From contig CBDBOU010000003.1 of the NCBI GenBank assembly GCA_965208535.1, positions 1,765-65,764 of the forward strand: DNA of 64,000 nucleotides, in the 5' to 3' direction. A model generated the notes under the pieces. That model ran no database searches and was not told the origin of the DNA. It saw nothing but the letters and a program-made list of their open reading frames with translations. Of this stretch, positions 1-47,400 are shown piece after piece. The stretch comes from Vicinamibacterales bacterium (GTDB lineage: Bacteria > Acidobacteriota > Vicinamibacteria > Vicinamibacterales > UBA8438). Position 1 is the stretch's first letter; the number at the start of each line of letters is the position of its first letter. Both the position numbers and the translations under genes were made by a program.

Positions 1-2
1 AT

Positions 3-1244: not shown

Positions 1245-1294
1245 AGGTCCAGACGGCCGGGAACGTGCGGCAGCGCATCAGCGCGGTGATGGAC
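1169..1294 (+). pseudogene. P4-type tyrosine integrase central (core-binding) domain fragment
   Basis: Translates as LGNRLVSEVASADVLEVLTPISHVKVQTAGNVRQRISAVMD, matching the IntA/P4 pattern (ADVLxVLxPIW..K.ETA.RVRQRI..V). Confidence 0.7.
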
Positions 1295-1344
1295 TCCCCG
1301 GCTACACCCGGCCGTGGACATCCACGGATCACGGATCCACGGAC

Positions 1345-1435
1345 CGTAACCGTGGGCCGCCATCTTCTCCACGACTCCCGTTCGCCGGTCGTCGGCGTCG
1401 ACCGCAATCAGGGATTGCGTATCGGAATCCTGCAT
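1345..1435 (-). pseudogene. idi: Type I isopentenyl-diphosphate isomerase N-terminal remnant
   Basis: MQDSDTQSLIAVDADDRRTGVVEKMAAH matches the Idi N-terminus (LIxVDxxDxxxGxxEKxxAH). The following LHRAFS segment is absent. Confidence 0.6.
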
Positions 1436-1516
1436 GGGTGTCCACCTCGGAACCGCGGTATCGGCGGAACCGTCGACCGGATGTTTTGCCCCCGGGAAGT
1501 CGTCGGCCCGCTGGGG

Positions 1517-2692: not shown

Positions 2693-2738
2693 CAATGCCC
2701 CCCGGCGTCGGGTGAGCGCCGCCACACGGGCATCGCCG

Positions 2739-11574: not shown

Positions 11575-12880
11575 GGCTTCTCGCCAAAATAAAGTAGTGA
11601 TTTATAAGAGTTGGTGTGTTATCGTCGGACTCCGTGGAGAACGCACTGACACAAGTGATTCAGGAGAAGTTTGCCGCGATTGGACCATTGCTCAACGAAA
11701 GGACTCGGCGGCGTTGGGCCGCGGTGGAGGCACGGGCACTCGGACGCGGTGGAATCGCGCGGGTCGCCGAGGCGACGGGGTTGTCGAGAGCGACGATCAG
11801 CGCGGGCCTGCAGGAATTGGCCGCAGGGCCGGAAGAAGACGATGCCGCGGGGCGGTTGCGCGGTCCTGGCGCTGGCCGCAAGGCGCTGGCCGAGCACGAC
11901 GCCGGCTTGGTGGCGGCATTGGAAAGGCTGGTCGACCCGGCGACGCGCGGCGACCCGACGGGGCCGTTGCGCTGGACTTGTAGCAGTGCGGCTCGGCTGT
12001 CGCGGGCACTCCAGGAAGGGGGCCATCGGGTCAGCGAGCGCTCGGTGAACCGGCTGCTGCACGCGTTGGGTTACAGTCTGCAAGCGAACCGTAAGACGCT
12101 GGAGGGGAAGCAGCATCCGGACCGGGACGCGCAGTTCAATCACATCAACCGCCGAGTGCGGGCTTTTCAGCGGCGGCGCCAACCGGTGGTGTCGGTAGAC
12201 ACGAAGAAAAAGGAGCTCGTCGGCCCGTTCGAAAACGCGGGGCGGGAGTGGCGTCCTCGCGGTCACCCGGAGGCGGTTCGGGTCCACGACTTTCCGGACA
12301 AGGCCCTCGGCAAGGCGATTCCGTACGGCGTGTACGATCTGACCCACGATGCCGGCTGGGTGAGCGTCGGCGTCGACCACGACACGGCGTCGTTCGCGGT
12401 GGAGACGTTGCGGCGGTGGTGGCGGCGGATGGGCTGCGTCTCGTATCCGGTGGCGCGCCGGTTGTTGATCACGGCTGACGGCGGCGGCTCGAACGGCAGC
12501 CGCAACCGTCTGTGGAAGTGGGAGTTGCAGCAGTTCGCCGACGAGATGGGGCTTCGGGTCTCGGTGTGCCACTTTCCGCCTGGGACGAGCAAGTGGAACA
12601 AGATCGAGCACCGGATGTTCTGTCACATCACGGAGAACTGGCGGGGCCGGCCGTTGGTGAGTCGGGAGGTGGTGGTGAACCTGATCGGCCACACGACGAC
12701 GCGGAGCGGCTTGGCGATTCGTTCCGAGTTGGACGAGAACAGCTACCCGACGGGACAGCCGGTGACGGCGGAACAGATGGAGAGTCTTTCGCTCAAGCGG
12801 GACAAGTTCCACGGCGATTGGAACTACAGTCTTACGCCGCGAGAGACCAAGAAATAATCAAGTTATTTTGGCGAGAAGCC
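11575..12880 (+). mobile_element. ISAzo13-family insertion sequence
   Basis: Perfect 18-bp terminal inverted repeats GGCTTCTCGCCAAAATAA (11575-11592 and 12863-12880), flanked by a 3-bp TTA duplication. Confidence 0.92.
11616..12857 (+). CDS. ISAzo13-family DDE transposase
   Basis: LNERTRRRWAA, SVDTKKKELVG, LITADGGGSN, PPGTSKWNKIEHR, FHGDWNY. Confidence 0.93.
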   Translation: MLSSDSVENALTQVIQEKFAAIGPLLNERTRRRWAAVEARALGRGGIARVAEATGLSRATISAGLQELAAGPEEDDAAGRLRGPGAGRKALAEHDAGLVAALERLVDPATRGDPTGPLRWTCSSAARLSRALQEGGHRVSERSVNRLLHALGYSLQANRKTLEGKQHPDRDAQFNHINRRVRAFQRRRQPVVSVDTKKKELVGPFENAGREWRPRGHPEAVRVHDFPDKALGKAIPYGVYDLTHDAGWVSVGVDHDTASFAVETLRRWWRRMGCVSYPVARRLLITADGGGSNGSRNRLWKWELQQFADEMGLRVSVCHFPPGTSKWNKIEHRMFCHITENWRGRPLVSREVVVNLIGHTTTRSGLAIRSELDENSYPTGQPVTAEQMESLSLKRDKFHGDWNYSLTPRETKK

Positions 12881-14009: not shown

Positions 14010-14628
14010 GCTCTTCGCCTCCGGTGCCGGTGCCGCGAGCGGCGACCCGTGCCGCCCCCCGAGACCGGGCGGCGGTGCGGCCAGCCTGCGCCTCGGTGCT
14101 TTAGTCTATCGGGCTGGCGGCTGGCTTGCGCCGGCGCCGGGCACGAAACGTGTGGAACGGCTATGCCGTCGCGGTGCGCGACGGCGGCGGCGCGATGCCG
14201 GAGGTCGGGGGGACGTGGTCGACCAGGCTGCCGGGTTTTTCCTCCAGCGATGGGAATCTGGTTCGGCGCGCCATATAACCCGCCTGTGGCGGGGCGAGCG
14301 GCAGCGAGCGCCTGGACGCCCGAGTTCCGACGAGTGGCTGATGTGGCGCCGGACGCTCGACGGCTGGGGCTTCTGACGCCGGAGTTGATTAACCAATTGG
14401 ACGAACCCGGATCCGGTGCCGTTTGCTGGTCGTCGGCCGCGCGCCAGCGCCTCACGCCCGTCGTCGGGGCGCTGGCGGGTTGGGCGGGTTGGCGTCGATC
14501 TTGTGTGTCTCCGGGGATTCGGGCCAAAATAGCTGGCTTGTGCGCCCGGATTCGGGTCAACCGGGCGGGTCGTCTCTCGGGGGATCGGTTGCGAATCGAG
14601 GAGTGGAGTGTTGCTTTGCGCGATGGAC

Positions 14629-14657
14629 TTGACAACGCGGGCTGGACGTGGTTCTCT
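14629..14657 (+). promoter_or_regulatory. Putative sigma70-like promoter of adhesin 1
   Basis: TTGACA-N17-TTCTCT with TG at the extended -10 position. The cassette is about 27/33 identical to the one upstream of adhesin 2. The -10 box is non-consensus. Confidence 0.45.
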
Positions 14658-14660
14658 CGT

Positions 14661-14750
14661 GAGCGCAGAGCGCAGAGCGCAGAGCGCAGAGCGCAGAGCG
14701 CAGAGCGCAGAGCGCAGAGCGCAGAGCGCAGAGCGCAGAGCGCAGAGCGC
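14661..14750 (+). repeat. Heptanucleotide simple sequence repeat (GAGCGCA) x 12.9
   Basis: Perfect tandem 7-mer over 90 bp. Confidence 0.97.
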
Positions 14751-14912
14751 CTCGGTGCGGCTTGTGACGCTGGGCTGAGGCCACGGCCCCTCGGGAAGGG
14801 GCGGCCCGGATTCCCGGCCGCCGCATTCTTTTCCTCCCTGCTCCTCCGGATACCCGCAGACGGCCAGGACTCGACTCCGCCGGGTCGGGGCGCGGGTGCT
14901 GCCGTTCGCGGC

Positions 14913-17900
14913 ATGCTGCGCGGCTTGCTGGCGCCCTTCGTCTGCCTGGCGCTGCACGCCGCCCTCGCACCCGGCGCCGCCGCGCAGACACCGGTCCCGC
15001 ATGACTGGGCATTGACGCCGGCGGGTTTGGACGCGGGCGACCAGTTCCGGTTGCTTGTCGTCACCAACGCTTCAGACTTGGCCACGAACCCTTATATAAG
15101 CCCTTACGACCAAGTGGTGCAGAGAGAAATTCGCCTCGGCCACCAAGCCATCCGGTCCTACAGTCCGCATTTCCGTGTGCTCGCTTCGTCGGCCGGCACT
15201 CTCGAGTTCGCAATTCCCGTCCCACCGGTGGTGGCCCGCGACCACACCTCGACCACCGGTACGGGCGTGCCGATCTACTGGCTGAACGGCGCCAAGGTCG
15301 CCGACGACTATACGGATTTCTACGATGGGACCTGGGACAGCAACGAGGCGCGGATCGCATCGGGCGCCCGGAAGACCGTCACCCTCGTCTGGACGGGCAG
15401 CAACGCGGACGGCACCTCGTTCTCCGGCCAGGAACTCGGCAACGCCGGCACTATTGATGGCAGGGAAGGCGAGGATCTGGTCCGGGTCGGTTCTCTGGCG
15501 TCCACCAGCAACACGATCTCGTCTGGGTCCGAGCGCAGCAGGCGGCGTCTGCCCGTCTACGGTCTGTCCCCGGTGTTCGTGGTGCTACCCGCGGTGACCA
15601 TCACGGGCGGCGCCGCGGTGACCGAAGGCGACGCTGCCTCGTTCACCATCACGGCCTCCGCGGCTCCGAAGGCGAACCTGACGGTGAATCTGTCGGTGGC
15701 CGACGTGGCGGGCAGCGACTTCGTGGCGGCCACCAACGAAGGCAACAAGTCGGTCACCATCACCGCCGGCCAAACCACCGCCACCTACACCGTGGACACG
15801 GTGGACGACGGCGTGAACGAGGCCAGCGGCGCGGTCACGGTCACGGTGAAGGACGGCACGGGCTACAGCGTCGGCACGCCGTCGTCGGCGGGCGTGACGG
15901 TCAACGACGACGACGCGCCCGAGTTGACCATCACGGGCGGCGCCGGGGTGGCCGAGGGCGGGACCGCCTCGTACACCATCACGGCGACCGTGGCGCCAGC
16001 GGCGGATCTGACGGTGAACCTGTCGGTGGCCGACCCGGCGGGCAGCGACTTCGTGGCCGACGACGACGAAGGCAGCAAGACCGTCACCCTCGCCGCCGGC
16101 GCGACCACCGCCACCTACACGGTGGACACGGTGAGCGACACCGGCGCGGCGGGGGACGAGGCCAGCGGCCCGGTCACGGTCACGGTGGAGACCGGCACGG
16201 GCTACCGCGTCGGGACGCCGTCGTCGGCGGGCGTGAGGGTCACCGACAACGACGTGACGACGGTGACGCTGGAGGGGGTGGCGGTGAACCTGCCCGAGGG
16301 GTCGAGCCTGGACTTCTCGGTCCGTCTGAACCGCGCGCTGGTCTCCGGCGAGACGCTGCCGGTGCCGGTGACCTTCGGCGGGGAGGCGTCCCTGGCCGAC
16401 TTCTCGGTCACGTGTCCCTCGCCGCTGCCGACGGGCGTCAGTTGCGCCGGTCTGGCGACGACCAGCGCGACGGTCACCTTCACCGGCCCGTCGGCCAACC
16501 TGGCGACCCTGACGGTGACCTCGGTCCAGGACGACACGGCGGAGGCCGATCCCGAGTCGTTGGTGATCGGTCTCGGGACGCTGGGCGCGACCTCCGGCAC
16601 CGGGCTGGACGGCGGCGTGACCGGGGTGGACAACCTGGCTGACTTCAACCTCGTGGACGCGATCGGGGTCGCGCTGTCCTTCAGCGTGGAGGGCGTTTCC
16701 GTTCGCGAGGGAGACTCGGACCCCAACACCGGCGTGGCGCGGTTCAGCGCCTACGTCGCGAGCGGGAACGTGCCGGAGGGCGGCGTGGTCATCCCCTTCT
16801 CGATCAACTCCGGAACCGCGCAGGCGAACGACGCCTCGAGCGCCGACTACGGCACGGTTCCGGCGGGCATCTCCATCGCGGCCGGGGGGCTGCAAGGCAC
16901 GGCGACGCTGAGCATCGTGGACGACACGGTGGACGAGCTGCGCGAGAACATCCGCTTCCGCGTCACCGAGCTGCCGCCCGGCTACCGGTTCCATGGGGGA
17001 GCCTTCGACACCGCGAACAGCGTAGTGTCGATCCTGGACAACGACTCCACGCCGGTGAGCCTGAACCTGACGGGCGGCGGGACGTTCACCGAGCAGGACA
17101 CGACCACCTCAGCGGCGATCAGGATCCGTACGGCGCGCCGGATGTCCAACGACCCGCTGAACCCTCTCGGCGCCGAGGCGGTCATGGTGCCGCTGATGCT
17201 GGCCAGCACGACGGGGGCGGCGCTGCCCGGTTCGGCGAGTCCGATGTTCGCGGTCACGGCGTCGGGCACGGGCGTGTCGATCAGCGGGGAGAACACGGCC
17301 ACGCCGACGATCACGTTCACGGGGCACGCCACCAACATGGTGCAGGAGGCGACGGTCACGTTCACGGCGACGGCCAACGGCGACGCCGACGCGACGGCGG
17401 AGACGGTGACGGTGACGATGGGCACGCCGACGAGCACGAACGTGGACGGCGGCGTGAGCGCCACGATGGCGAACTCGGCGACGCTGACCATCGCCGACGA
17501 CGACGGGGCGCCGCAGCTCGCGGTGGCGCTGGTCGGCACCGACCTTGCGCGGGTGAGCGTGAGCGAGGGCGAAACCGCGAGGATTCGGGTGCGGCGGCAC
17601 GGGGGCGACAAGTCGGCGGCGCTGAGCTTCAGCGCGACGGCGACCGACGCCGACGGCTTCAGCGGCACGTTCTCCAGCGTGACGAGCATCCCGGCCGGCC
17701 AGCGGTCGGTGGACATCACCTACTCGGTGGCCGAGGACACCGCCGACGTGCCGCGGGGCGAGGCCACCTATGTGTTGAACGCCAATTCCGCCTACACGCT
17801 CTCGTCAATGGTCTCGGTGTCGCTGGAGGTCGTGGACAACGACGCGACGCGGGTGCTGTTGACGGCCGCGGACGACGACCTGGTGGAGGGTAACGTCAAG

Positions 17901-20900
17901 GGGGTGACCATGTCGCTCGGCCGGGGTCTGGTGTCGGGCGAGGCGCTGGTGGTGCCGCTGACCTTCGGCGGCACGGCGACGCGGGGCACGGACTACACGC
18001 TGGAAGGGACGCCCGGGCGCGGTGTGAGCGTCCAGAACCTGAACAGCGGCAGCGCCAGCGTCACCTTCACGGGCCCGGAAACGGGCGAGACCAGTACGAC
18101 TTTCTCAATGTTCCTGACCGCCGAGCCGGACGAGGTGGAGGAGCCGGACGGCGAGACCGTGGAGCTCGGCCTGGGGACGCTGAACGAGAACTCCGGCACC
18201 GGCCTGGACGGCGGCGCCAGCGCCAGCGGCGAGGAGTCGTTCAGCATCCAGGATTCGGTGCCCAACGCGGTGAACCTGTCGGTCAGCGACGACGGCGATG
18301 CGACCGAGGGCGGCGAGGCGCTGACCATCACGGCGACCCTGGACCGCGCCAACGCCACCGGCGCCGCGATCAGCATCCCCATCCAGGCGGATGCGGACGG
18401 CACGACCGCGCAGGCCGCGGACTACACGGTGGCGTCGAGCATCAGCATCGCCAACAACGCGCAGAGCGGCACGACCTCGTTCACGGCGACGGACGACGAT
18501 GTCGCCGAGAGCATCGAGACGGTCCTGATGGAGCTGGGAGGCACCCTGCCGGACGGCGTCGTCTCGGGCGAGGCGAACGACGTCGGCATCTCGATTACCG
18601 ACAACGACACGGCAGGTCTGGTCATCTCGCCGACCTCGCTGGGGGTGGCCGAAGGCGACGACGCGAGCTACACGGTCGAGCTGGCGACGCTGCCGACGGG
18701 GACGGTGACGGTGGCGATCACGGTGCCGGCGGGCACGGACCTGACGCTGGACACGACGAGCCTGACGTTCTCGACCTCGACGTGGGACGACGCGCAGACG
18801 GTGACGGTGACGGCGGGCGAGGACGACGACACGACGGACGACACGGCGACGCTGACGCACGACGCCTCGGGGGGCGGCTACGACAACCTGGGGCGGGAAC
18901 TCGCGGTCACGGTGACCGACAACGACGCGGCGGGCCTGGTGCTCTCGCCGACCTCATTGGAGGTGGACGAAGGCGACGACGCGAGCTACACGGTGAAGCT
19001 GGCGGCGGCGCCGTCGAGCACGGTGACGGTGACGGTCACGGGCCATTCGGGCACGGACCTGACGCTGGACACGACGAGCCTGACGTTCTCGACCTCGACG
19101 TGGAACACGGCGCAGACGGTGACGGTGACGGCGGGCGAGGACGACGACACGACGGACGACACGGCGACGCTGGCGCACGAGGCCTCGGGGGGCGGCTACG
19201 ACGCCGTGGAGGCGGACCTCGCGGTGACCGTCAGCGACGATGACACGGCGGGCCTGGTGCTCTCGCCGACCTCGTTGGAGGTGGACGAAGGCGACGACGC
19301 GAGCTACACGGTGAAGCTGGCGACCGCGCCGTCGAGCACGGTGACGGTGACGGTCACGGGCCATTCGGGCACGGACCTGACGCTGGACACGACGAGCCTG
19401 ACGTTCACGACCTCGACGTGGGACGACGCGCAGACGGTGACGGTGACGGCGGGCGAGGACGACGACACGACGGACGACACGGCGACGCTGGCGCACGAAG
19501 CCTCGGGGGGCGGCTACGTCGACGTGGAGGCGGACTTGGCGGTGACGGTCAGCGACGACGACACGCCCGGTCTGATCTTCTCGCCGACCTCGCTGGGGGT
19601 GGCCGAGGGCGACGACGCGAGCTACACGGTCAGGCTCGCCACCCAGCCGTCGAGCACGGTGACGGTGGCGGTCACGGGCCATTCGGGCACGGACCTGACG
19701 CTGGACACGACGAGCCTTACGTTCTCGACCTCGACGTGGAACGCCGTGCAGACGGTGACGGTTTCTGCGGGCGACGACGCCGACCTGACGAACGACACGG
19801 CGACGCTGACGCACACGGCCTCGGGAGGCGGCTACTCGGTGACGGCGCCCCTTGTGGTGACGGTGACCGACGACGACCAACTGCCGGTGGTCTCGTTCGC
19901 CTCGTCGTCGTCGAGCGCGGGCGAGGGTTCGGGCACGCGCAACGTGACGGTGGACTTGTCGCCGGCGCCGGCTGCCGCGATCACGGTGAGCTACACGGTG
20001 GGCGGCACGGCGACGGCGGGCAGCGACTTCAGCATCAGCGGCTCGGGGACGCTGTCGGTCGCGTCGGGGGCCACGATGGCGACCATCCCGGTGGCGATCA
20101 CCGACGACACGGCGGACGAGAGCAACGAGACGGTCGTCCTGACGCTGGCGACGGGCAGCGGCTACACGCTGGGGAGCCGGAACACCCACACCCTGACGAT
20201 CACGGACGACGACGGCACGACGCCGCCGCCGCCGACGCCGACGGTGAGCCTGTCGGCCGCGCCGAACCCGGTCGACGAAGGCGGCTCGGTGACGGTGACG
20301 GCGCGGTTGTCCGAGGCGCTGTCGGGCAGCGTGACGGTCCCGCTCGTGCTGACGGCGGGTACGGCAGAGCCGGAGGACTACGGCTCGCTGGCGAGCATCA
20401 CCATCAACGGCGGGCAGACCACGGGGACGGGCATGGTGACGACGGCGCAGGACGCCGACGAGGACACCGAGACGTTCACCGTGGCGCTGGGCAGCTTGCC
20501 GTCGGACGTGACGGCGGGCAGCCCGTCGTCGGTCGTGGTGACGATCCGCGACGACGATGGGACGACCGAGCCGCCGGAGCCGGTGAACACTCCGCCCACG
20601 GTGCGGGCGTCGTGCGACCCGTGCGCGACGCCGCCGGGCGGCGAGGTGGGTCTGACGGCGACGGCGTCCGACCCCGACGGCGACTCGCTGACCTACCGCT
20701 GGAGCGCGACCGCGGGGCGTTTCGACGGCCCCACCGACCGGTCGACCGCGCGGTGGACGGCGCCGGCCGAGCCGGGGCGCGTGACGATCACCGTGCGGGT
20801 CTCGGACGGCGAGGACTCGGTGTCGGCCACCGTCACCGTGGAGGTCGTCAACCGGGCGCCGGCGTTCAAGGAGTCGGTCTACCGCTTCGAGCTGGCGGAG

Positions 20901-23243
20901 AACCTCGACGGCAGCCGTCAGTCGGTCCATCTCGGCCAGGCGGCGGCGGAGGACCCCGACGGCGACGCGTTGACCTATGACGTGTCGGGCGGCGACCGGA
21001 AGCACTTCCGGATCGGGTCGCGGGACGGCGTGGTGAAGTATGTCGGCCCGGGCGAGGACTACGAGTCGGAGCCGAACCGGTACGAGCTGACGGTCCAGGC
21101 GCAGGACCCGCACGGCGCGGCGGCCGAGGCGCAGGTGGTGGTCACGGTCACCGACGTCAACGAACGGCCGGAGGCCGAGGACGACGCGGCCGAGACGCCG
21201 GAGGACGTGGCGGTGACGGTCGACGTGCTGGCGAACGACACGGACCCGGACGGCGACTCTCTGCGGGTCGAGTCGGTGTCGGCGCCCGAGCACGGGACGA
21301 CGCGCATCGCGGCGGGGGGCGTGCTCTACACGCCGGAGGCGAACTACCACGGCGCGGACCGGTTCACCTACGTGGTCACCGACCCCGAGGGCGAGACGGC
21401 CAGCGCGGCCGTCGAGGTGACGGTGCTGTCGGTCAACGACGCGCCGGAGGCGGTCGGGACCATGCCGGACCAGCCGCTCGACGAGGGCGGCGGCTCGGTG
21501 GACATCGAGCTGGCGCCGTACTTCGAGGACGTCGACGGGGACGAGCTGGCCTACCGCGCGGCGTCCTCGAATACGGACGTGGCGACGGTGCGGGTCGTTG
21601 GGGCGGTGCTGACGGTGACGCCGGTGGTGTACGGGTCGGCGATGGTGACGGTGACGGCGGCGGACCCTGAAGGCCTCACGGCGACGCAGACGTTCACCGT
21701 GGGGGTGGACGACCGGTTGGTGCGGGCGGTGCTGGGGCACACGCTGGCGGCGATGGCCCGCTCGCACCTGGCGAGCGCGCGGATGACGCTGGGGCGGCGG
21801 GTGGAGGCGGGCCGTAGCGACGAGCCGCGGCTGACGGTGATGGGCCGCGCGGTGCCGCTGGGCAAGGCGGCGGCGCGGCAGGCGGCCGAGCAGCTGGTCA
21901 TGGGCTGGCTGTCGAGCGGCGCCTACGCCGGCTCGTCGGCGCACGGCCTCGGCGGCTCTCCGTTCGGGGCGGCGGGCGCAACGCCGGGCCTGGGCGGGTA
22001 TCCGGCAGGCGGATTCGGCGGTCCGGCGATGGGCGGTCCGGCGATGGGCGGACCTGGGCTCGGTGGCCCCATGGCGGTCGGGATGCCGCCCGGCTCGGCT
22101 GGGAGCCTGTACGGCTTCGGGGGCTTCGGCGGCGGCCCGGACGCGCTGCTGCAAGGCACGGAGTTCGAGCTGGCGCTGGGGGGCGACGAGGACGGCGGCT
22201 GGGGGTGGCTGCGCCGGCGCCTCAGCGTGTGGGGGCAGGGCGACATCCAGACGTTCCACGGCGCGCCGACCGTGTTCCGCTACGACGCCCGCTACGACGG
22301 CGACATGCGGACCGGCTACGTGGGCGTCGACGCGCGGCTGTCGGAGCGCTGGCTGGCGGGCGTGGCGGTCTCGCGCAGCGGGGGCCGGAGCCACTGGCAG
22401 GTGGGCGCATCGCGCGGGCATCTGAAGACGAGGCTGACGGCGCTGCACCCCTACGCGCAGTGGTCGGACGGGACCACGTCGGTGTGGACGATGGCCGGCA
22501 CGGGTTGGGGCGAGGGCGAGGCTGAGAACGTGCGGGCGGCGACCGGCCTGTTGGGCGCCAGCGGCCTCGGCCTGCGGCTGGGGCTCGTCGAGCTGCGGCG
22601 CGAGCTGGGCGCGGTCGGCGGCGGCGCCGAGTTCGGGTTGCGGACCGATGCGGCGTGGGCGGAGCTGCGGACCGGCGAGGGCCGCGAATCGGTCGACGGG
22701 CTCACGGCGCCGGTCAACCAGCAGCGGGTCGGCGCGGAGGTGTCGCGGCCGTTGCGGCTCGGCGCGCTGGCCCTGCGGCCGTTCGGCGAGACGCACCTGC
22801 GGCGCGACGCGGGCGCGGGTCAGAACGGGACCGGCGTCGAGGTGGCCTTCGGGCTCGGGCTGACGGGCGGCCTCGTGCGGCTCGACGTGCAGGCGCGGAC
22901 GCTGGCCGTGCACTCGGCGGCCGGCTACGGCGAGCGGGGCGCCGGGTTGACGCTGACCGTCGGCGGCCAGCAGCGCGAGGGGCTGTCGCTGTCGGTGTCG
23001 CCTGCCTGGGGCGACGCCGCCTCGGGGACCGGCGCGCTGTGGCAGGAAGAGGTCTACCGCCACTACCTGCCCGAACAGGAACAGGACAGCTTCGCGGTCG
23101 ACGCGCGGGGGGACTACGGCATGCGGCTGCCGAACGGCGGGATGCTGACGTGGTTCGGCAGCTACAGCCACTCGCCCTACGGCCGCGGCTTCCTCGTCGG
23201 CGGCAGCATCGGGCTTGCCGATGCGCTGCTGCCCGGCCGGTAG
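14913..23243 (+). CDS. Large adhesin autotransporter (lectin-like tip, Calx-beta/cadherin-like/Ig repeats, C-terminal beta-barrel)
   Basis: Signal peptide MLRGLLAPFVCLALHAALAPGAAAQ, then a PHDWALTPAGL..FRLLVV domain, Calx-beta repeats ending in DDD, cadherin (AEDPDGDALTY), Big_9 (DVLANDTDPDGD), a Gly-rich linker and an amphipathic barrel. The ORF is open from 13479, so the true start is uncertain. Confidence 0.88.
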   Translation: MLRGLLAPFVCLALHAALAPGAAAQTPVPHDWALTPAGLDAGDQFRLLVVTNASDLATNPYISPYDQVVQREIRLGHQAIRSYSPHFRVLASSAGTLEFAIPVPPVVARDHTSTTGTGVPIYWLNGAKVADDYTDFYDGTWDSNEARIASGARKTVTLVWTGSNADGTSFSGQELGNAGTIDGREGEDLVRVGSLASTSNTISSGSERSRRRLPVYGLSPVFVVLPAVTITGGAAVTEGDAASFTITASAAPKANLTVNLSVADVAGSDFVAATNEGNKSVTITAGQTTATYTVDTVDDGVNEASGAVTVTVKDGTGYSVGTPSSAGVTVNDDDAPELTITGGAGVAEGGTASYTITATVAPAADLTVNLSVADPAGSDFVADDDEGSKTVTLAAGATTATYTVDTVSDTGAAGDEASGPVTVTVETGTGYRVGTPSSAGVRVTDNDVTTVTLEGVAVNLPEGSSLDFSVRLNRALVSGETLPVPVTFGGEASLADFSVTCPSPLPTGVSCAGLATTSATVTFTGPSANLATLTVTSVQDDTAEADPESLVIGLGTLGATSGTGLDGGVTGVDNLADFNLVDAIGVALSFSVEGVSVREGDSDPNTGVARFSAYVASGNVPEGGVVIPFSINSGTAQANDASSADYGTVPAGISIAAGGLQGTATLSIVDDTVDELRENIRFRVTELPPGYRFHGGAFDTANSVVSILDNDSTPVSLNLTGGGTFTEQDTTTSAAIRIRTARRMSNDPLNPLGAEAVMVPLMLASTTGAALPGSASPMFAVTASGTGVSISGENTATPTITFTGHATNMVQEATVTFTATANGDADATAETVTVTMGTPTSTNVDGGVSATMANSATLTIADDDGAPQLAVALVGTDLARVSVSEGETARIRVRRHGGDKSAALSFSATATDADGFSGTFSSVTSIPAGQRSVDITYSVAEDTADVPRGEATYVLNANSAYTLSSMVSVSLEVVDNDATRVLLTAADDDLVEGNVKGVTMSLGRGLVSGEALVVPLTFGGTATRGTDYTLEGTPGRGVSVQNLNSGSASVTFTGPETGETSTTFSMFLTAEPDEVEEPDGETVELGLGTLNENSGTGLDGGASASGEESFSIQDSVPNAVNLSVSDDGDATEGGEALTITATLDRANATGAAISIPIQADADGTTAQAADYTVASSISIANNAQSGTTSFTATDDDVAESIETVLMELGGTLPDGVVSGEANDVGISITDNDTAGLVISPTSLGVAEGDDASYTVELATLPTGTVTVAITVPAGTDLTLDTTSLTFSTSTWDDAQTVTVTAGEDDDTTDDTATLTHDASGGGYDNLGRELAVTVTDNDAAGLVLSPTSLEVDEGDDASYTVKLAAAPSSTVTVTVTGHSGTDLTLDTTSLTFSTSTWNTAQTVTVTAGEDDDTTDDTATLAHEASGGGYDAVEADLAVTVSDDDTAGLVLSPTSLEVDEGDDASYTVKLATAPSSTVTVTVTGHSGTDLTLDTTSLTFTTSTWDDAQTVTVTAGEDDDTTDDTATLAHEASGGGYVDVEADLAVTVSDDDTPGLIFSPTSLGVAEGDDASYTVRLATQPSSTVTVAVTGHSGTDLTLDTTSLTFSTSTWNAVQTVTVSAGDDADLTNDTATLTHTASGGGYSVTAPLVVTVTDDDQLPVVSFASSSSSAGEGSGTRNVTVDLSPAPAAAITVSYTVGGTATAGSDFSISGSGTLSVASGATMATIPVAITDDTADESNETVVLTLATGSGYTLGSRNTHTLTITDDDGTTPPPPTPTVSLSAAPNPVDEGGSVTVTARLSEALSGSVTVPLVLTAGTAEPEDYGSLASITINGGQTTGTGMVTTAQDADEDTETFTVALGSLPSDVTAGSPSSVVVTIRDDDGTTEPPEPVNTPPTVRASCDPCATPPGGEVGLTATASDPDGDSLTYRWSATAGRFDGPTDRSTARWTAPAEPGRVTITVRVSDGEDSVSATVTVEVVNRAPAFKESVYRFELAENLDGSRQSVHLGQAAAEDPDGDALTYDVSGGDRKHFRIGSRDGVVKYVGPGEDYESEPNRYELTVQAQDPHGAAAEAQVVVTVTDVNERPEAEDDAAETPEDVAVTVDVLANDTDPDGDSLRVESVSAPEHGTTRIAAGGVLYTPEANYHGADRFTYVVTDPEGETASAAVEVTVLSVNDAPEAVGTMPDQPLDEGGGSVDIELAPYFEDVDGDELAYRAASSNTDVATVRVVGAVLTVTPVVYGSAMVTVTAADPEGLTATQTFTVGVDDRLVRAVLGHTLAAMARSHLASARMTLGRRVEAGRSDEPRLTVMGRAVPLGKAAARQAAEQLVMGWLSSGAYAGSSAHGLGGSPFGAAGATPGLGGYPAGGFGGPAMGGPAMGGPGLGGPMAVGMPPGSAGSLYGFGGFGGGPDALLQGTEFELALGGDEDGGWGWLRRRLSVWGQGDIQTFHGAPTVFRYDARYDGDMRTGYVGVDARLSERWLAGVAVSRSGGRSHWQVGASRGHLKTRLTALHPYAQWSDGTTSVWTMAGTGWGEGEAENVRAATGLLGASGLGLRLGLVELRRELGAVGGGAEFGLRTDAAWAELRTGEGRESVDGLTAPVNQQRVGAEVSRPLRLGALALRPFGETHLRRDAGAGQNGTGVEVAFGLGLTGGLVRLDVQARTLAVHSAAGYGERGAGLTLTVGGQQREGLSLSVSPAWGDAASGTGALWQEEVYRHYLPEQEQDSFAVDARGDYGMRLPNGGMLTWFGSYSHSPYGRGFLVGGSIGLADALLPGR
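18612..19878 (+). repeat. Four tandem repeats of about 318 bp (106 aa) in adhesin 1
   Basis: GLVLSPTSL.V.EGDDASYTV..TDLTLDTTSLTF..W...QTVTVTAGEDDD units, the same family as the adhesin 2 repeats. Confidence 0.9.
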
Positions 23244-29507: not shown

Positions 29508-29680
29508 GGCTCGGACTCCGGTCGATGGGCTCCCCACCGGCCAGTCTACGGCCACCGTCGCCCTCGGGCGACCAATGAACGCGGTTCACGCCGCAGAGGG
29601 GGCAGCGGCCGGAGTCCGACTCACCCGCAGACAGCGCCGAGGCCTACATGTCTCGTCGGTCTGAGGCGCAGCCTCGCTAG

Positions 29681-31408: not shown

Positions 31409-31474
31409 CTAGATCTATCCGTGCGCCTCCCCATACACCCGGACCGCGCAGCCGACGCCGGATCGTAGCACGCC

Positions 31475-38420: not shown

Positions 38421-41400
38421 CTACTCGGGTGCGCCGAGGTTGAGTATCCCGTAGAGGCCGACGCGGTGGTCGGCCCCGCCGTCGGGGCGGCCGTAGCGCT
38501 CGCCGAGCAGCTCGACCTCGACCGGCGTTGCCAGGTCGCCGCTGAAGCGCCCGAGCACGCCGAGCCGCGCCCCCAGTTGCACGCGTTGGGCCTCGCCTGT
38601 CCGGCCGTAGCCCACCAGCGGCGTCAGCAGCCGGTTGCCCGGCAGCATCCAGCCGTAGCCCAGCCGCGCGTCGACCCCGCCGTCGTGCCGGTTCGGTCCC
38701 GCCGCGTAGCTCTGGACGTGGTCCTGCCACAGCGACTCGGCCCCGTAGCCCGGCGCCCCCCAGTGCGGGCGCACCGACGCGGTCAGCCCCGGCTCGTAGT
38801 GCCCGCCGCCCGCCATCGCCGTCACGCTGAAGCCGTGCTCCTCGTAACCCGACGCGGTGTGCAGCAAGAGCCTGCGCCCCTGCGCCTCGATGCGCATCCT
38901 CCCGGCACTCACCCGCACCCCGGCGGCTGTCTCCAGTCCCAGGCCCGTCTGCCCGGCCCCGCCGTCGTGCCGCGTGCTCACCGCCCCGAACGGCGCCACC
39001 TGCATGCCGCCGGGGCCGCCCAGCGGCAGCGTCGCCTCGACTCCGGTCCGCAGCCGCCGCACCGCCGCCGCCAGCCCGTCGACCGTCTCCTCGCCACTGC
39101 CGGTCCGAAGCTCAGCCCACGACGCCTCGCCCCGCAGCGACAGCTCCACGCCCCCGGCCGCCCTGCCCAGCCGGTGCCGGCCCTCCAGCAGCCCCAGCCG
39201 CAGGTCCAGCGGGCTCGTCCCGCGCCGGCCATTGAGCGTCCGCACGTTCTCCGCCGTCCCCCGGCCCACGCCCGCCAGCGCCCACACCGCCGTGTCCCGG
39301 CCGCCGATGCGCACATACGGGTGCAGCACCGTCAGCTCCGTCCCCAGCCGGCCGCTCGAATAGCCCTGCCGCCACTCGCTGCCGCTGCCGCTGCGGCTCA
39401 CCGCCGCCCCCGCCAGCAGGTGCTCGGTGAGCTGCACGTCCACGCCGAGGTAGCCCGTCGCCAGGTCGCCCTCGTAGCCGGCCGCATCATCCGGCCCCGC
39501 CCACCGGAACGACTGCCGGTCGCCCTGGCCCCAGACCCGCCAGCGGCCAACGCCCGTACCGGGCGTCTCCGGGTCGCCCTGCCCGCCGAACGACAGCAGC
39601 ACGTCGGTGCCCAGCAGCATCTGGCCCCAGTCGGTCCCGGCCCCGCCCCCGAAGCCGCCGCCCATCAGGCCCATCCGCTGGAACCGCGGGTCGGCCGATG
39701 TCCCCGACAGGTCCCGCGGCGAGCGCCGCTGCCGCAGCGTCGCCGCCCGCAGCGACAGCCAGTGCGACTGCTCCAGGCTCCCGGCCCCCATCTGCTCCCA
39801 CGCGTCGGGCGTCAGCTGCTGGCCGCCGAGCATCAGCCGCATCGCGCCGTCGTCGTACTCCAGCCGCCGGCCGATGGCGATCCGCGCGCTCGACAGGTGC
39901 GCCCGCCCCAGCGCCGCCAGCGCGCCGGTCAGCACCTCCCGCACCAGCCCGTCGCCCACCGACACCCCGAACGTCTGCACTGCCGTCAGACCGTCGGGGT
40001 CGGCCGCCGTCACCGTCACGGTCGCCGTTCCCGTGACCACCGGCGAGAGCGTCAGCGTCGCGCCCACCACCGCCACCGTCACCGCCGACTCGTCCGAGGA
40101 CACCGCCGTGTAGCTCAGCGCGTCGCCGTCCACGTCGGTGAAGTACGGCGTCAGGTCCACCGTCGCCGTTCCGCCGCCCTCCTCGAGCGTCTGGTCCGGG
40201 ATGACCCCCACCGCCTCCGGCGCGTCGTTCACCGGCAGCACCGTCATCGTCACCGTCGCCGACGCCGTCAGGCCGCCCGGGTCCGCGATCGTGTAGCTGA
40301 AGCGGTCCGTGCCGTACCAGTTCAAGTCCGGCGAGTAGCGCACGCTGTTGTCGACGATGGCAGTCGCGCCGTGTGCGGCCGGGCCGGCCGAGACCACCGT
40401 CAGCGGGTCGCCGTCGACGTCCGTGTCGTTGGCCAGCACGTCGACCACCACCGCCACGTCCTCCAGCGTCTCCGCCTCGTCGTCGACCGCCTCCGGCGGG
40501 TCGTTCACCGGCGTCACCGTCACCACCACCGTCGCCTCCGACGTCAGCCCGCCCGGGTCCGTCGCCGTGTAGCTGAAACGGTCCTCGCCGTACCAGTTCA
40601 GGTCCGGCTCGTAGCGCACCCCGCCCGAGACCACCGTCGCCGTCCCGTTCTCCGGCGCCGTCACCGACGCCACCCGCAATCGCTCGCCGTCCGGGTCCGT
40701 GTCGTTCGACAGCACGTCGATCACCAACGGTGTGTCCTCGGGCGTCTCCGCCCGGTCGTCCTTCGCCTCCGGCGACTCCGGCGCGTCGACCACCCGTACG
40801 GTCACCTGCGCCTTCGCCTCGTACTCCCCGTCCCCCGCCGTCACCTGCAACTCGAACTCGGACGGACCCGACTCGAAGTCCTCGCCGCCGCCGGTGTAGC
40901 TCACCTCGCCGCCGCGCCGCGACACCGTGAAGCGGTCGCCGTCGCCCGCCGACAGCGCGTAGCGCAGCCGGTCGCCGTCGGCGTCGCTCGCGCCCACCGT
41001 CCCCAACGCCACCGGCGTGTCGCGTCCCGAGGCATTCTCCGGCAGGTCGAACGTGTAGCTCGACTGCCCGAACTCCGGCGGCCGGTTCGGCTCGTCGTCG
41101 TCGAGCAGCGTCAGCGACGTGCCCTCGACCGACAGCCCCACCTCGGTCGTGCCCGTGATCGCCACCCGCTGGTCCGGCTCGTCCTTCGTGTCGTCCACCG
41201 GCGTCAGGTCGAACGACGCGGCGGCGCTGGCCGCGTCCGCCGGGACCTCGACCGCGAACACCGACGGCGTGGCCGCATACTCGTCCGCGTCCTCGGCGAC
41301 ACTCACCGTCACCACCGTCGCTTCGCCGCGCGCTCCCGCGACGAGCGTCGCCGTCACCGTCACCGCCGTCGTGCCCGCGCCTTCGGAGACCGACGAGGGG

Positions 41401-44400
41401 CTCACGCTCAGGACCACGTCGCCCGACACCGGCTCGCCGTCGTCCTCGTCGTCATCGACCGTCACGGCGAGGTCCGCCGTGACCGACCCGTACCCGCCGC
41501 CCGACGCCGTGTGCGCCAGCGTCGCCTCGTCGTCTTCCGCATCGTCGTCCTGTGCGGCCGTCACCGTCACCGTCTGCGCCGTGTTCCAACTCGCCGTCGT
41601 GAACGTCAACGACGCCGTGTCCAGCGTCAGGTCCGTGCCCGAGTGCCCCGTGACCGCCACCGTCACCTGACCCGTCGGCTCGGTCGAAAGACGCACCGTG
41701 TAGGTCCCACCCTCCCCTTCGGCCACGGTCAGCGTCGAGGGCGACAGCACGACCCCGGCCGTCTCCGGCGTCTCGTCGTCGGTCACCGTCACCGCAAGCT
41801 CCGCCGTCTCGCCCGCGTAGTCGCCCCCGGACGCCGTGTGCACCAGCGTCGCCGTATCGTCGTCCGCGTCGTCGTCCTCGCCGGCCGAGACCGTCACCGT
41901 CTGCGCCGTGCTCCACGTCGCCGTCGTGAACGTCAGAGAAGTCGTATCCAGGCTCAGGTCCGTGCCCGAATGCCCCGTGACCGCAACCGTCACCTGAGCC
42001 GTCGGCTGCGTCGAAAGCCGCACCGTGTACTCGCCGTCGGCCCCCTCGGCCACCCCCAGCGCCGTCGTCGAGAGCACCAGGCCCACCGACTCGTCGTCGG
42101 TCACCGTCACCGCAAGCTCCGCCGTCTCCGACGCGTAGTCCCCGCCCGACGCCGTGTGCGTCAGCGTCGCCGTGTCGTTGTCCGCGTCGTCGTCCTCGCC
42201 CGCCGAGACCGTCACCGTCTGCGCCGTGTTCCACGTCGCCGTCGTGAACGTCAACGACGCCGTATCCAGGCTCAGGTCCGTGCCCGAGTGCCCCGTGACC
42301 GCAACCGTCACCTGAGCCGTCGGCTCGGTCGAAAGACGCACCGTGTAGGTCCCATCCTCCCCCTCGGCCAGTCCCAGCGACGAGGTCGACAGCACGATAC
42401 CCACCGACTCGTCGTCGGTCACCGTCACCGAAAGCTCCGCCGTCTCCGACGCGTAGTCCCCGCCCGACGCCGTGTGCGTCAGCGTCGCCGTGTCGTCGTC
42501 CGCGTCGTCGTCCTCGCCCGCAGAGACCGTCACCGTCTGCGCCGTGTTCCACGTCGCCGTCGTGAACGTCAGAGAGGTCGTATCCAGGCTCAGGTCCGTT
42601 CCCGAATGGCCTGTGACCGCCACCGTCACCTGAGCCGTCGGCTCGGTCGAAAGACGCACCGTGTAGGTCCCATCTTCTCCCTCGGCCAGTCCCAGCGACG
42701 AGGTCGACAGCACGATACCCACCGACTCGTCGTCGGTCACCGTCACCGCAAGCTCCGCCGTCTCCGACGCGTAGTCCCCGCCCGACGCCGTGTGCAAGAG
42801 CGTCGCCGTGTCGTTGTCCGCGTCGTCGTCCTCCGCCGCCGACACCGTCACCGTCTGCGCCGTGCTCCACGTCGCCGTCGTGAACGTCAACGACGCCGTG
42901 TCCAGCGTCAGGTCCGTACCCGAGTGTCCCGTGACCGCAACCGTCACCTGAGCCGTCGGCTCGGTCGAGAGCCGAACCGTGTAGGTCCCATCCTCCCCCT
43001 CGGCCAGCCCCAGCGACGAGGTCGACAGCACGATACCCACCGTCTCGTCGTCGGTCACCGTCACCGCAAGCTCCGCCGTCTCCGACGCGTAGTCCCCGCC
43101 CGACGCCGTGTGCAAGAGCGTCGCCGTGTCGTTGTCCGCGTCGTCGTCCTCGCCGGCCGAGACCGTCACCGTCTGCGCCGTGTTCCACGTCGCCGCCGTG
43201 AACGTCAACGACGCCGTGTCCAGCGTCAGGTCCGTACCCGAGTGTCCCGTGACCGCAACCGTCACCTGAGCCGTCGGCTGCGTCGAGAGCCGAACCGTGT
43301 ACTCGCCGTCGTCTCCCTCGGCCAGCCCCAGCGCCGTCGTCGACAGCGTCAGACCCACCGTCTCGTCGTCGGTCACCGTCACCGAAACGCTCGCCGTCTC
43401 CCCCGCGTAGTCGCCCCCGGACGCCGTGTGAACCAGCGTCGCCGCGTCGTTCGCCGCGTCGTCGTCCTCACCGGCCGAGACCGTCACCGTCTGCGCCGTG
43501 TTCCATGTCGCCGTCGTGAAAATCAGCGAGGTCGAGTCCAAGGTGAGGTCGGTGCCCGTCTGGCCCGTGACCGCAACCGTCACCTGAGCCGTCGGTTGCG
43601 TCGAGAGCCGAACCGTGTAGCTCGCATCCTCTCCCTCGGTCAGCCCCAGCGCCGTCGTCGACAGCGTCAGACCCACCGTCTCGTCGTCGGTCACCGTCAC
43701 CGCAACGCTCGCCGTCTCGCCCGCGTAGTCCCCGCCAGACGCCGTGTGCAGAAGCGTCGCCGCATCGTTCGCCGCGTCGTCGTCCTCGCCGGCCGAGACC
43801 GTCACCGTCTGCGCCGTGTTCCACGTCGCCGTCGTGAACGTCAGGCTCGCCGTGTCCAGAGTCAGGTCCGTGCCCGAGTGCCCCGTGACCGCCACGGTGA
43901 CGGTCGCCGTCGGCTGCGTCGCAAGCCGAACCGTGTACTCGCCGTCGGCCCCCTCGGCAACCCCCAGCGCCGTCGTCGACAGCGTCAGCCCCGCCGTATC
44001 GTCGTCGGTCACCGTCACCGTGACACTCGCCGTCTCGCCCGCGTAGTCGCCCCCGGACGCCGTGTGCAGCAGCGTCGCCGCGTCGTTCGCCGCGTCGTCG
44101 TCCTCACCGGCCGAGACCGTCACCGTCTGCGCCGTGTTCCACGTCGCCGTCGTGAACGTCAACGACGCCGTGTCCAGCGTCAGGTCCGTGCCCGAGTGCC
44201 CGGTGATGGTGACCGTCACCTGAGCCGTCGGCTGCGTCGAGAGACGGACCGTGTACTCGCCGTCGTCCCCCTCGGTCACCCCCAGCGCCGTCGTCGACAG
44301 CGTCAACCCCACCGACTCGTCGTCGGTCACCGTCACCGCAACGCTTGCCGTCTCGCCCGCGTAATCGCCCCCGGACGCCGTGTGCAGCAGCGTCGCCGAG

Positions 44401-47400
44401 TCGTTCGCCGCGTCGTCGTCCTCGCCGGCCGAGACCGTCACCGTCTGCGCCGTGTTCCACGTCGCCGTCGTGAACGTCAGACTGGTCGAATCCAAGGTGA
44501 GGTCGGTGCCTGCCTGGCCCGTGACCGCAACCGTCACCGTCGCCGTCGGCTGCGTCGAAAGCCGAACCGTGTACTCGCCGTCGTCGCCTTCGGCCACCCC
44601 CAGCGCCGTCGTCGACAGCGTCAACCCCACCGACTCGTCGTCGGTCACCGTCACCGCAACGCTCGCCGTCTCCCCCGCGTAGTCGCCCCCCGAGGCCGTG
44701 TGCAGCAGCGTCGCCGCGTCAGCCGCCGCGTCGTCGTCCTCGCCCGCCGTCACCGTCACCGTCTGCGCCGTATTCCACGTCGCCGTCGTGAACGTCAGGC
44801 TCGCCGTGTCCAGCGTCAGGTCCGTGCCCGCCTGGCCCGTGACCGCAACCGTCACCGTCGCCGAAGGCTGCGTCGCAAGCCGCACTGTATACTCGCCGTC
44901 GTCCCCCTCGGTCACCCCCAGCGCCGTCGTCGACAGCGTCAGCCCCGCCGTATCGTCGTCGGTCACCGTCACCGCAACGCTCGCCGTCTCCCCGGCGTAG
45001 TCCCCACCCGAGGCCGTGTGCAGCAGCGCCGCCGCGTCGTTCGCCGCGTCGTCGTCCTCGCCCGCCGTCACCGTCACCGTCTGCGCCGTGTTCCAACTCG
45101 CCGTCGTGAACGTCAACGACGCCGTGTCCAGCGTCAGGTCCGTACCGGCCTGGCCCGTGACCGCTATCGTCACCTGGGCCGTCGGCTGCGTCGCCAGACG
45201 CACCGTGTAGGTGTTGCTGCCCCCCTCGGTAACCCCCAGCGCCGTCGTCGACAGCGTCAACCCCACCGACTCGTCGTCGGTCACCGTCACCGCAACGCTC
45301 GCCGTCTCGCCCGCGTAGTCCCCGCCAGACGCCGTGTGCAGCAGCGTCGCCGCGTCGTTCGCCGCGTCGTCGTCCTCACCGGCCGTCACCGTCACCGTCT
45401 GCGCCGTGTTCCAACTCGCCGTCGTGAACGTCAGAGAGGCCGTGTCCAGCGTCAGGTCCGTGCCCGCCTGGCCCGTGACCGCTACCGTCACCTGAGCCGT
45501 TGGCTGCGTCGCCAACCGAACCGTGTAGGTGTTGCTGCCTCCTTCGGCCACCCTCAGCGCCGTCGTCGACAGCGTCAGACCCACCGACTCGTCGTCGGTC
45601 ACCGTCACCGCAACGCTCGCCGTCTCACCGGCGTAGTCGCCCCCCGAGGCCGTGTGCAGCAGCGTCGCCGCGTCGTTCGCCCCGTCGTCGTCCTCGCCGG
45701 CCGTCACCGTCACCGTCTGCGCCGTGTTCCAACTCGCCGTCGTGAACGTCAGAGAAGCCGTGTCCAGCGTCAGGTCCGTGCCCGCCTGGCCCGTGACCGC
45801 TACCGTCACCTGGGCCGTCGGCTCGGTCGAAAGGCGCACCGTGTAGGTGTTGCTGCCTCCTTCGGCAACCCCCAGCGCCGTCGTCGACACCGTCAGGCCC
45901 ACCGTCTCGTCGTCGGTCACCGTCACCGCGACGCTCGCCGTCTCGCCCGCGTAGTCCCCGCCCGAGGCCGTGTGCAAGAGCGTCGCCGCGTCGTTCGCCC
46001 CGTCGTCGTCCTCGCCGGCCGAGACCGTCACCGTCTGGACCGTGTTCCAACTCGCCGTCGTGAACGTCAGCGACGCCGTGTCCAGCGTCAGGTCCGTGCC
46101 CGAGTGTCCGGTAATGGCGACGGTCACCTGCGCCGTCGGCTGCGTCGAGAGACGAACCGTGTACTCGCCGTCGTCTCCCTCGGCAACCCCCAGCGCCGTC
46201 GTCGACAGCGTCAGACCCACCGTCTCGTCGTCGGTCACCGTCACCGCAACGCTCGCCGTCTCGCCCGCGTAGTCGCCCCCGGAAGCCGTGTGCAGCAGCG
46301 TCGCCGCGTCGTTCGCCCCGTCGTCGTCCTCGCCGGCCGAGACCGTCACCGTCTGCGCCGTGTTCCACGTCGCCGTCGTGAAGGTCAGCGAGGTCGCATC
46401 CAGGCTCAGGTCCGTGCCCGCCTGCCCCGTGATCGCAACCGTCACCTGGGCCGTCGGCTGCGTCGCCAGCCGAACCGTGTACTCGCCGTCGTCCCCCTCG
46501 GTGATCCCCAGCGCCGTCGTCGACAGCGTCAGACCCACGTCGTCGTCGTCGGTCACCGTCACCGCGACGCTCGCCGTCTCGCCCGCGTAGTCCCCACCCG
46601 AGGCCGTGTGCAGCAGCGTCGCCGCGTCGTTCGCCCCGTCGTCGTCCTCCCCGGCCGACACCGTCACCGTCTGCGCCGTGTTCCACGTCGCCGTCGTGAA
46701 CGTCAACGACGCCGTGTCCAGCGTCAGGTCCGTGCCCGAATGCCCGGTGATGGCGACCGTCACCTGCGCCGAAGGCTGCGTCGCCAACCGCACCGTGTAC
46801 TCGCCGTCGCCCCCCTCGGCAACCCCCAGCGCCGTCGTCGACAGCGTCAGATCCGCCTCGTCGTCGTCGGTCACCGTCACCGCGACGCTCGCCGTCTCGC
46901 CCGCGTAGTCCCCGCCCGAGGCCGTGTGCAAGAGCGTCGCCGCGTCGTTCGCCCCGTCGTCGTCCTCGCCCGCCGTCACCGTCACCGTCTGGACCGTGTT
47001 CCAACTCGCCGTCGTGAACGTCAGCGACGCCGTGTCCAGCGTCAGGTCCGTGCTCGCCTGGCCCGTGACCGCCACGGTTACCGTCGCCGTCGGCTGCGTC
47101 GAAAGCCGAACCGTGTACTCGGCGTCGTCCCCCTCGGCCACTCCCAGCGCCGTCGCCGACAGCGTCAGCTCCACCTCGTCGTCGTCGGTCACCGTCACCG
47201 AAACGCTCGCCGTCTCCCCGGCGTAGTCGCCGCCCGAGGCCGTGTGCAGCAGCGTCGCCGCGTCGTTCGCCCCGTCGTCGTCCTCGCCGGCCGAAACCGT
47301 CACCGTCTGCGCCGTGTTCCACGTCGCCGTCGTGAACGTCAGAGAGGCCGTGTCCAGAGTCAGGTCCGTGCCCGAATGGCCCGTGACCGCCACGGTGACG

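Follow-up and report, generated by a model that had tools for sequence, protein, structure and literature searches.

Phase variation driven by simple-sequence repeats is textbook biology for host-adapted pathogens and, to our knowledge, is hardly documented in environmental or mutualistic symbionts. The window analysed here, a stretch of 64,000 nucleotides from a Vicinamibacterales genome (8.40 Mb in three contigs, 68.7% G+C), contains two giant adhesin-like genes, adhesin 1 and adhesin 2, each preceded by a 34-nt cassette beginning with TTGACA and by a tract of the heptamer GCGCAGA. In neuO, the O-acetyltransferase gene of prophage CUS-3 in Escherichia coli K1, a heptanucleotide repeat lies in the 5' coding part; its reported features are full-length protein in one of three repeat-number classes, n from 3 to 53 across genomes, three units encoding a 7-residue peptide repeat, and an OFF state in 65.6% of 64 genomes (PMC13001214). 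The module in the window would likewise place a 7-nt repeat, putatively translated, in the 5' coding part, with three units corresponding to a 7-residue repeat. It differs in that neuO has the unit AAGACTC, an enzyme product, a single prophage locus and a known start codon. Here the repeat precedes a signal peptide, the starts are candidates, nine loci are present and the switching is proposed.

In Neisseria, the opa genes carry (CTCTT)n coding repeats in the leader-peptide region of multi-copy surface adhesins, where the frame changes through slipped-strand mispairing and each of several loci is switched on its own (PMC3960869). A frame-shifting 5' repeat in a multi-copy adhesin family would be common to both. 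The 5-nt opa unit sits inside the hydrophobic leader, whereas the unit here measures 7 or 8 nt and precedes the hydrophobic core, with a linker of 40-60 codons in between; opa products are small beta-barrels, and those considered here are giant cadherin/Calx-beta proteins. A third comparison is provided by the hmw locus of Haemophilus influenzae, which includes the glycosyltransferase HMW1C. In hmw1A and hmw2A, a 7-nt tandem repeat is located ~70-100 bp upstream and its unit number modulates expression (PMC2651432). Paralogous large adhesin genes, upstream 7-nt repeats and glycosyltransferase genes in the locus are shared with the window. In the hmw genes, the repeats lie in promoters and grade transcription, whereas here most members have no start after the tract and the frame is kept, which points to translation. 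By analogy, neuO and opa appear closest in mechanism, and the transcriptional alternative of the original prediction (its Model B) would correspond to hmw1A/hmw2A.

A translational frame switch of the neuO and opa kind is the account that we hold to be probable, with reserve. Translation would start upstream of the tract, read the tract as SAERRAQ-type heptad repeats and continue through a sequence-unconstrained linker into the adhesin signal peptide. The tract would act as a slipped-strand contingency repeat inside a translated leader. Each 7-nt unit (8 nt in one relative) gained or lost would shift the frame; one frame would enter the adhesin, and the other two would usually stop a few codons past the tract. 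Each of the nine loci in the present genome would switch independently. The upstream translation start, the frequent and reversible slippage and the adhesin identity of the proteins are points that we infer; the adhesin calls rest on Pfam domain matches, and signal peptides are judged by eye. The module is a candidate for a family-wide, multi-locus simple-sequence switch.

Upstream of adhesin 1, twelve full GCGCAGA units match exactly on the forward strand (14663..14746), and Tandem Repeats Finder (TRF) delimits the array at 14661-14750, with period 7, 12.9 copies and 100% matches. Tract coordinates are taken from TRF plus exact unit matching. This tract contains no stop and no ATG, GTG or TTG in any frame, and translates as SAERRAQ repeats. 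Upstream of adhesin 2, on the reverse strand, six exact units extend from 56042 to 56001 and are followed by GCG to 55998, giving 6.6 units when the preceding A is included. Three joined GCGCAGA units are matched 14 times in the window, versus 0 in 100 shuffles. The cassette of adhesin 1 (TTGACA-N28; 14629..14662, +) opens with TTGACA at 14629-14634 and ends with GTGA at 14659-14662 (GTG at 14659-14661). The cassette of adhesin 2, TTGACAAAGCGGCATGGACGTGATTCGCTCGTCA (56076-56043, -), opens with TTGACA at 56076-56071 and encloses ATG 56063-56061 and GTG 56057-56055, both in frame with adhesin 2 at n = 6. The two cassettes are identical at 28 of 34 positions, as counted by hand from both sequences. 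A shared cassette followed by (GCGCAGA)n ahead of both adhesins, as originally predicted, is thus present, with 12.9 and 6.6 perfectly matching units.

The module is not confined to the window. The comparison covers 19 loci in seven genomes of one Vicinamibacterales family, nine of them in the present genome, where the search for the cassette before other surface proteins proposed with the original prediction finds six loci with (GCGCAGA)n (n = 8, 6, 5, 12, 2 and 6) and three further loci with a near-identical cassette and (GCGCAGG)n (n = 17, 8 and 8). Across all 19 loci, TTGACA begins 33-35 nt before the tract (27-29 nt between them), and the module precedes three kinds of giant adhesin-like genes with signal peptides. 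The third kind is represented by adhesin 3, a giant repeat protein (L213; G000:C2:3025962-3036445, G000 being the present genome and C1 to C3 its contigs) with 3464 open codons behind TTGACATTGCGGGCCGGAAGTGCTTCACTCGTGG and (GCGCAGG)8. All seven matches of the adhesin 1 N-terminal domain in the present genome carry a tract. Searching 104 genomes of the family with the cassette pattern gives 14 places in six genomes, and the reversed pattern, used as control, gives none; likewise, none of 352 genomes drawn from 18 further families of the order contains the cassette. A scan of metagenome contigs for the cassette plus one unit returns no match. Using the first domain of adhesin 1 as a protein query recovers two further loci that the pattern misses: G003_694k carries (GCGCCGA)11, and G058_C88 carries the octamer (GCCGCCGA)7 behind TTGACA-N20-TACAAT-A. 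The unit at this one site turns over between GCGCAGA, GCGCAGG, GCGCCGA and GCCGCCGA; its length, 7 or 8 nt throughout, is in no case divisible by 3.

The position of start codons argues for translation through the tract. In the survey of ATG, GTG and TTG in the adhesin frame, from the tract to ~45 nt before the hydrophobic core, 12 of the 19 loci contain none, and these start-less loci still keep open frames of ~2,600-3,400 aa. Since neither the tract nor the sequence after it offers a start in these 12 loci, translation would have to begin upstream of the tract. A start codon downstream of the repeat is available in the other seven loci, including both genes of the window. The linker is consistent with this reading. 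In the 13 loci with a conserved post-tract block (10 distinct linkers), the hydrophobic core lies 118, 139, 154, 166, 169 or 175 nt from the first TGA, a distance of 1 mod 3 in every one; indels of 1 and 4 nt offset each other. The adhesin frame of these linkers contains no stop, and each of the other frames contains at least one. Wrong-frame stops are located 6 and 9 codons past the tract in the adhesin 1 family, 4 and 6 in adhesin 2, 5 and 22 in adhesin 3, and 10 and 17 in G058, four unrelated contexts. Unit lengths of 7 or 8 nt throughout also favour translation. Selection appears to act on the frame of the linker and not on its residues, which would be unconstrained if translated. The repeat-free homologues (G075, G024, G058_C250, P0009 and P0013) start 30-45 codons before the hydrophobic core, in G075 at GGAGG-N10-ATG, so that a long charged N-terminal extension is normal in the family; in the repeat-free homologues found by protein search it measures 30-35 residues. 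At one tract-bearing locus, G003b, a gene caller sets the start at an ATG adjoining the tract (P0002).

Unit number varies between close relatives. The window copy of the adhesin 1 locus has n = 12 and its counterpart at C1:1086k has n = 6, with 99.79% identity over 10.8 kb. G003b (n = 2) and G003c (n = 11) have flanks that are 99.7% identical, and G003c differs from G007 (n = 9) across two species at 97.3% identity. Over the 13 (GCGCAGA) loci of the adhesin 1 family, n takes the values 2, 2, 3, 5, 5, 6, 6, 8, 9, 11, 12, 16 and 19. In the frame naming of the adhesin 1 locus, F_a is the frame of ATG 14623, F_c the adhesin frame and F_b the third frame; by this naming, 3 of the 13 loci are in F_a, 3 in F_c (adhesin 1 among them) and 7 in the closed F_b. 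In-frame and out-of-frame alleles both exist among relatives. The C1 counterpart belongs to a longer stretch, since window positions 1-53083 are colinear with G000:C1:1071493-1121114 (~50 kb, 95-99.8% identity). Sequence is also shared among the ends of all three contigs (window 1-3935 with C1:1-3935 and C2:1-7755). These colinear copies may be a segmental duplication or strain haplotigs; in either case the repeat length has changed, and the difference of 12 versus 6 stands. A protein search with the in-frame N-terminus (54 matches) finds no near-identical allele series differing in repeat number. The support for a phase-variation switch, as the original prediction named it, is therefore comparative: tract length differs between near-identical copies and between species, and both kinds of allele are seen.

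At the adhesin 1 locus, an initiation-like block (14598..14618, +) lies upstream of the cassette, with GAGGAG at 14598-14603 and GGAG at 14605-14608. GTG 14608, in F_a, sits 4 nt after GAGGAG, and TTG 14616, in F_c, sits 7 nt after GGAG; GAGGAG and both of these codons are unchanged in all 11 distinct sequences of the family. The F_a candidates kept in relatives are GTG 14608, TTG 14629 (of TTGACA) and GTG 14659, and an ATG or GTG abutting the tract in F_a is present in 16 of the 19 loci. In F_b, the candidate is the GTG of GGACGTG. This frame is shut by the TGA of ATGA or GTGA in the (GCGCAGA) loci, but in adhesin 2 and the (GCGCAGG) loci it stays open and is the frame that leads into the gene. 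Past the tract, two TGA stops (14765-14767 and 14776-14778, +), one for each non-adhesin frame, lie 6 and 9 codons downstream in a block kept in 13 loci. The linker (14747..14912, +) stays open in the adhesin frame and leads to adhesin 1 (14913..23243, +), which from ATG 14913 has a signal-peptide-like start, MLRGLLAPFVCLALHAALAPGAAA/QT, and Pfam matches to Big_9, Cadherin and Calx-beta. The frame arithmetic of the original prediction holds: ATG 14623 is out of frame with adhesin 1 and runs into the stop at 14776-14778, and with these flanks it is in frame when n = 1 mod 3, so that one unit more or two fewer would restore it. Its start codon ATG 14623 is not conserved, being CTG, GTG or another triplet in most relatives. 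The OFF state assigned to adhesin 1 is insecure. The adhesin frame is also open upstream of the tract, where it includes the conserved TTG 14616, and ATG 14913 stands at the signal peptide; adhesin 1 is OFF only if F_a is the initiating frame. ATG 14913 is ACG in one sponge-metagenome contig and is missing from most relatives.

At the adhesin 2 locus, the claim that ATG 56063 reads in frame through the tract is confirmed, and this codon heads an open frame of 5880 aa (38421..56063). Both non-adhesin frames are shut by two TAA stops (55987-55985 and 55980-55978, -), 4 and 6 codons past the tract, in an AT-rich patch of a genome with 69% G+C. Further downstream, a predicted hairpin CUCCCUCCG/CGGAGGGA (55929..55958, -) covers the Shine-Dalgarno-like GGAGGG (55942-55937), and TTG 55931-55929 follows 6 nt further on. 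The hairpin appears in both the minimum-free-energy and the centroid fold, but the leader as a whole is no more stably folded than shuffled sequences (z 0.23). From TTG 55931, adhesin 2 (38421..55931, -) begins with a signal-peptide-like ...GSLLLVCVLLGLVMLASSPAQA/QD and matches Calx-beta, Big_9 and Cadherin. An ON state through ATG 56063 is possible, the codon being in frame, but the TTG after the tract looks the stronger start. The switch may be leaky or bypassed in both window genes because each of them has a start next to the signal peptide.

Several observations weigh against translation through the tract. Both window genes have a canonical start next to the signal peptide: ATG 14913 stands directly at that of adhesin 1, and GGAGGG-N6-TTG at 55931 is the better-looking start of adhesin 2, downstream of its tract. 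In adhesin 3, a canonical ATG with a signal peptide (MKIFLSLTIVVVWLFPGIAAA/QH) lies 222 nt past the tract. Upstream, candidate starts occupy all three frames, and G003_694k is in frame yet has no canonical start at all. A coding signature is lacking on both sides of the tract: over the 54 nt from the upstream GTG to the tract, the minimum changes by codon position are 9/8/8, showing no periodicity, and in the linkers the G+C content at third codon positions is 0.52-0.79 versus ~0.85 in the mature part, with G+C flat across codon positions (as it is in the linker of adhesin 1) and not coding-like. The reading frame of homologous linker bases varies from paralogue to paralogue. A signal peptide core placed 90-130 residues from the N-terminus would be unusual. 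TTGACA is perfectly conserved even in G058_C88, whose cassette is otherwise different (it has TGGTACAAT), which fits a promoter better than a coding sequence. The assembled contigs of four runs stop at 14685/14688 and resume at 14730/14731; none bridges the tract, and they speak neither for nor against length change within a population. An apparent pattern of synonymous changes upstream of the tract is not borne out by the codon-position counts.

A broader proposal, tentative at best, is that the 34-nt cassette and the slippery tract form a portable switch module, grafted onto three unrelated giant adhesin families, with the unit replaced several times and the position kept. This would mean selection for mutability. 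Such a module may join a promoter (TTGACA) to a leader frame, with two upstream pairs of Shine-Dalgarno sequence and start, in two different frames, and two TGA stops shutting the third, the repeat setting both transcription and frame. A promoter may be embedded in the translated leader.

Control at the level of transcription or of the 5' untranslated region, in the manner of hmw1A/hmw2A, is a doubtful alternative. The cassette would then be the promoter, with TTGACA, a 17-nt spacer containing TG-n and a weak -10 element; transcription would start in the first unit, and tract length would tune mRNA level, stability or translation from the start near the signal peptide. TTGACA, perfect in 19 of 19 loci, is the point at which similarity begins on the 5' side in four gene contexts, including adhesin 2, adhesin 3 and G058_C88, and the conserved GTG of the cassette is placed where the TG of an extended -10 would be. 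In G058_C88, TGGTACAAT is found 1 nt before the tract. The post-tract starts of adhesin 1 (ATG 14913), adhesin 2 (TTG 55931) and adhesin 3 (ATG with signal peptide) also agree with a promoter, and the hmw1A/hmw2A repeats, ~100 bp upstream, provide a precedent (PMC2651432). Against this, the proposed -10 hexamers TTCTCT, TTCGCT and TTCACT are without the consensus A at position 2, a sigma-70 scanner applied to the window and to three relatives (four regions in all) reports 0 sites, and the spacer from TTGACA to TACAAT in G058_C88 is 20 nt. A promoter leaves the 12 loci without a canonical start after the tract unaccounted for, and it does not predict the conservation of linker length in multiples of three or the early stops in both other frames. 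The transcriptional model of the original prediction thus keeps its perfectly conserved TTGACA and falters on the -10 element and on these start-less loci, and its translational model (Model A), the best fit to the gene family and correct in its frame arithmetic for adhesin 1, relies on a start codon that is not conserved.

Other regulatory elements were considered and rejected by eye: a sigma-54 site, with the GG-GC spacing off by one and the GC absent in adhesin 1; an ECF-type (extracytoplasmic function) site, which is not conserved in adhesin 2; and a leaderless mRNA beginning at TTGACA, for which the geometry is unfit. Folded as single-stranded DNA, the tract gives z -1.2. A consensus fold of 11 upstream sequences (14598-14662 and 10 relatives) pairs GAG(U/C)GGA of the Shine-Dalgarno-like block with UUCGCUC just before the tract, but only 2 of its 18 pairs show a compensatory change, one each, and the fold is not taken as evidence.

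A neutral, hypervariable microsatellite in a dispensable leader or N-terminal extension, with expression independent of the tract and out-of-frame copies decaying, is unlikely. The missing coding signature in the upstream block and linker would suit it, as would the truncation of G003b after 168 codons and the small share of loci (just 3 of 13) in frame with the start adjoining the tract. Heptamer arrays, including GCGCAGA-like ones, are also common in unrelated phyla without the cassette: at least 118 stretches of genome contigs, from many phyla, contain (GCGCAGA)3 or a longer run, mostly as imperfect heptamer arrays, and several such loci per genome, without the cassette, are found in metagenome-assembled genomes of some Chloroflexota, Acidobacteriota, Verrucomicrobiota and Thermoanaerobaculia. 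Of 80 stretches examined from these at least 118, three carry the cassette, and all three are from Vicinamibacterales. Neutrality is hard to reconcile with a tract site that is kept through unit replacement and across three gene families, with units of which none is a multiple of 3, with intact genes of 2,600-3,400 codons behind the tract, and with conserved linker frame and wrong-frame stops. The present genome, moreover, has only 18 perfect simple repeats at the thresholds set in this analysis, and of its nine heptamer tracts of 4 copies or more, eight belong to module loci.

Mis-assembly of the metagenome, producing the tract lengths or the duplicated copies, is very improbable: the first 53 kb of the window do align colinearly, at 95-99.8% identity, with the end of contig C1, repeats are shared between contig ends and some 'paralogues' could be strain haplotigs, but six other genomes also carry the module and surround it with different sequence, the flanks are error-free in contigs of independent runs, and haplotigs would make 12 versus 6 a strain polymorphism that supports the switch.

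Both adhesin genes and their surroundings contain further repeated sequence. A 318-bp repeat, in 43.8 copies with 89% matches, makes up the body of adhesin 2 (41497-55468, -), and adhesin 1 has 4 copies at 18597-19877. Downstream of adhesin 2, on the same strand, lie a glycosyltransferase family 2 (GT2) gene (37652-38401, -), whose start is reported to overlap the adhesin 2 stop, and a PMT_2/TPR protein gene (35142-37733, -), both assigned by Pfam; switching of adhesin 2 might also affect these genes, as the original prediction suggested. Upstream of adhesin 1, an ISAzo13-family transposase (DDE_Tnp_ISAZ013, E 3.8e-143) is encoded at 11616-12854 (+), and ~1.3 kb of the window copy is missing from the C1:1086k copy. 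An IS110-family transposase gene (57022-58500, within 56840-58615) and a 1.7-kb element (29677-31412, with a 494-codon frame at 29681-31165) each have more than 10 genome copies at 99.7-100% identity.

Elsewhere, another contig encodes the 241-residue predicted protein P0055, in which ...RLDIAGWTRCAHE leads into 13 SAERRAQ repeats (~39 units); this points to an additional cassette-like locus whose tract is far longer. Within the present genome, the longest heptamer tract is (GGGCGAC)25 (G000:C2:821650-821824), with TTGACA 30 nt upstream; no long frame follows it on that strand, and a 374-codon frame lies on the other strand. A C41 run (G000:C2:3071014-3071054), a C18 run (C2:2604770-2604787) and (CCAA)15 (C3:2238502-2238561) appear intergenic, the last just past the end of a frame labelled transposase-like by eye.

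In metagenome data, four runs of one sample contain 0.71-0.91 of the sampled words and sponge metagenomes ~0.25; the flanks of the window are found in runs labelled sponge metagenome. A literature search for repeat switches in Acidobacteria or sponge symbionts finds no paper among the best-ranked matches at the level of titles and abstracts, and a search with the bare heptamer returns primers only.

In conclusion, the upstream start that the start-less loci would require, the conserved frame of the linker and the changes in unit number between near-identical copies argue for a frame switch in a translated leader. In any single assembly such genes appear frameshifted or without a start, although they probably function, a point that annotation should take into account. 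If the switch operates, an uncultured sponge-associated Vicinamibacterales bacterium varies up to nine giant cadherin/Calx-beta surface proteins stochastically. If the module is portable as well, nine independent loci would give each cell lineage of a sponge symbiont a combinatorial surface coat. Such variation would bear on how a symbiont copes with host recognition, phagocytosis or phages.

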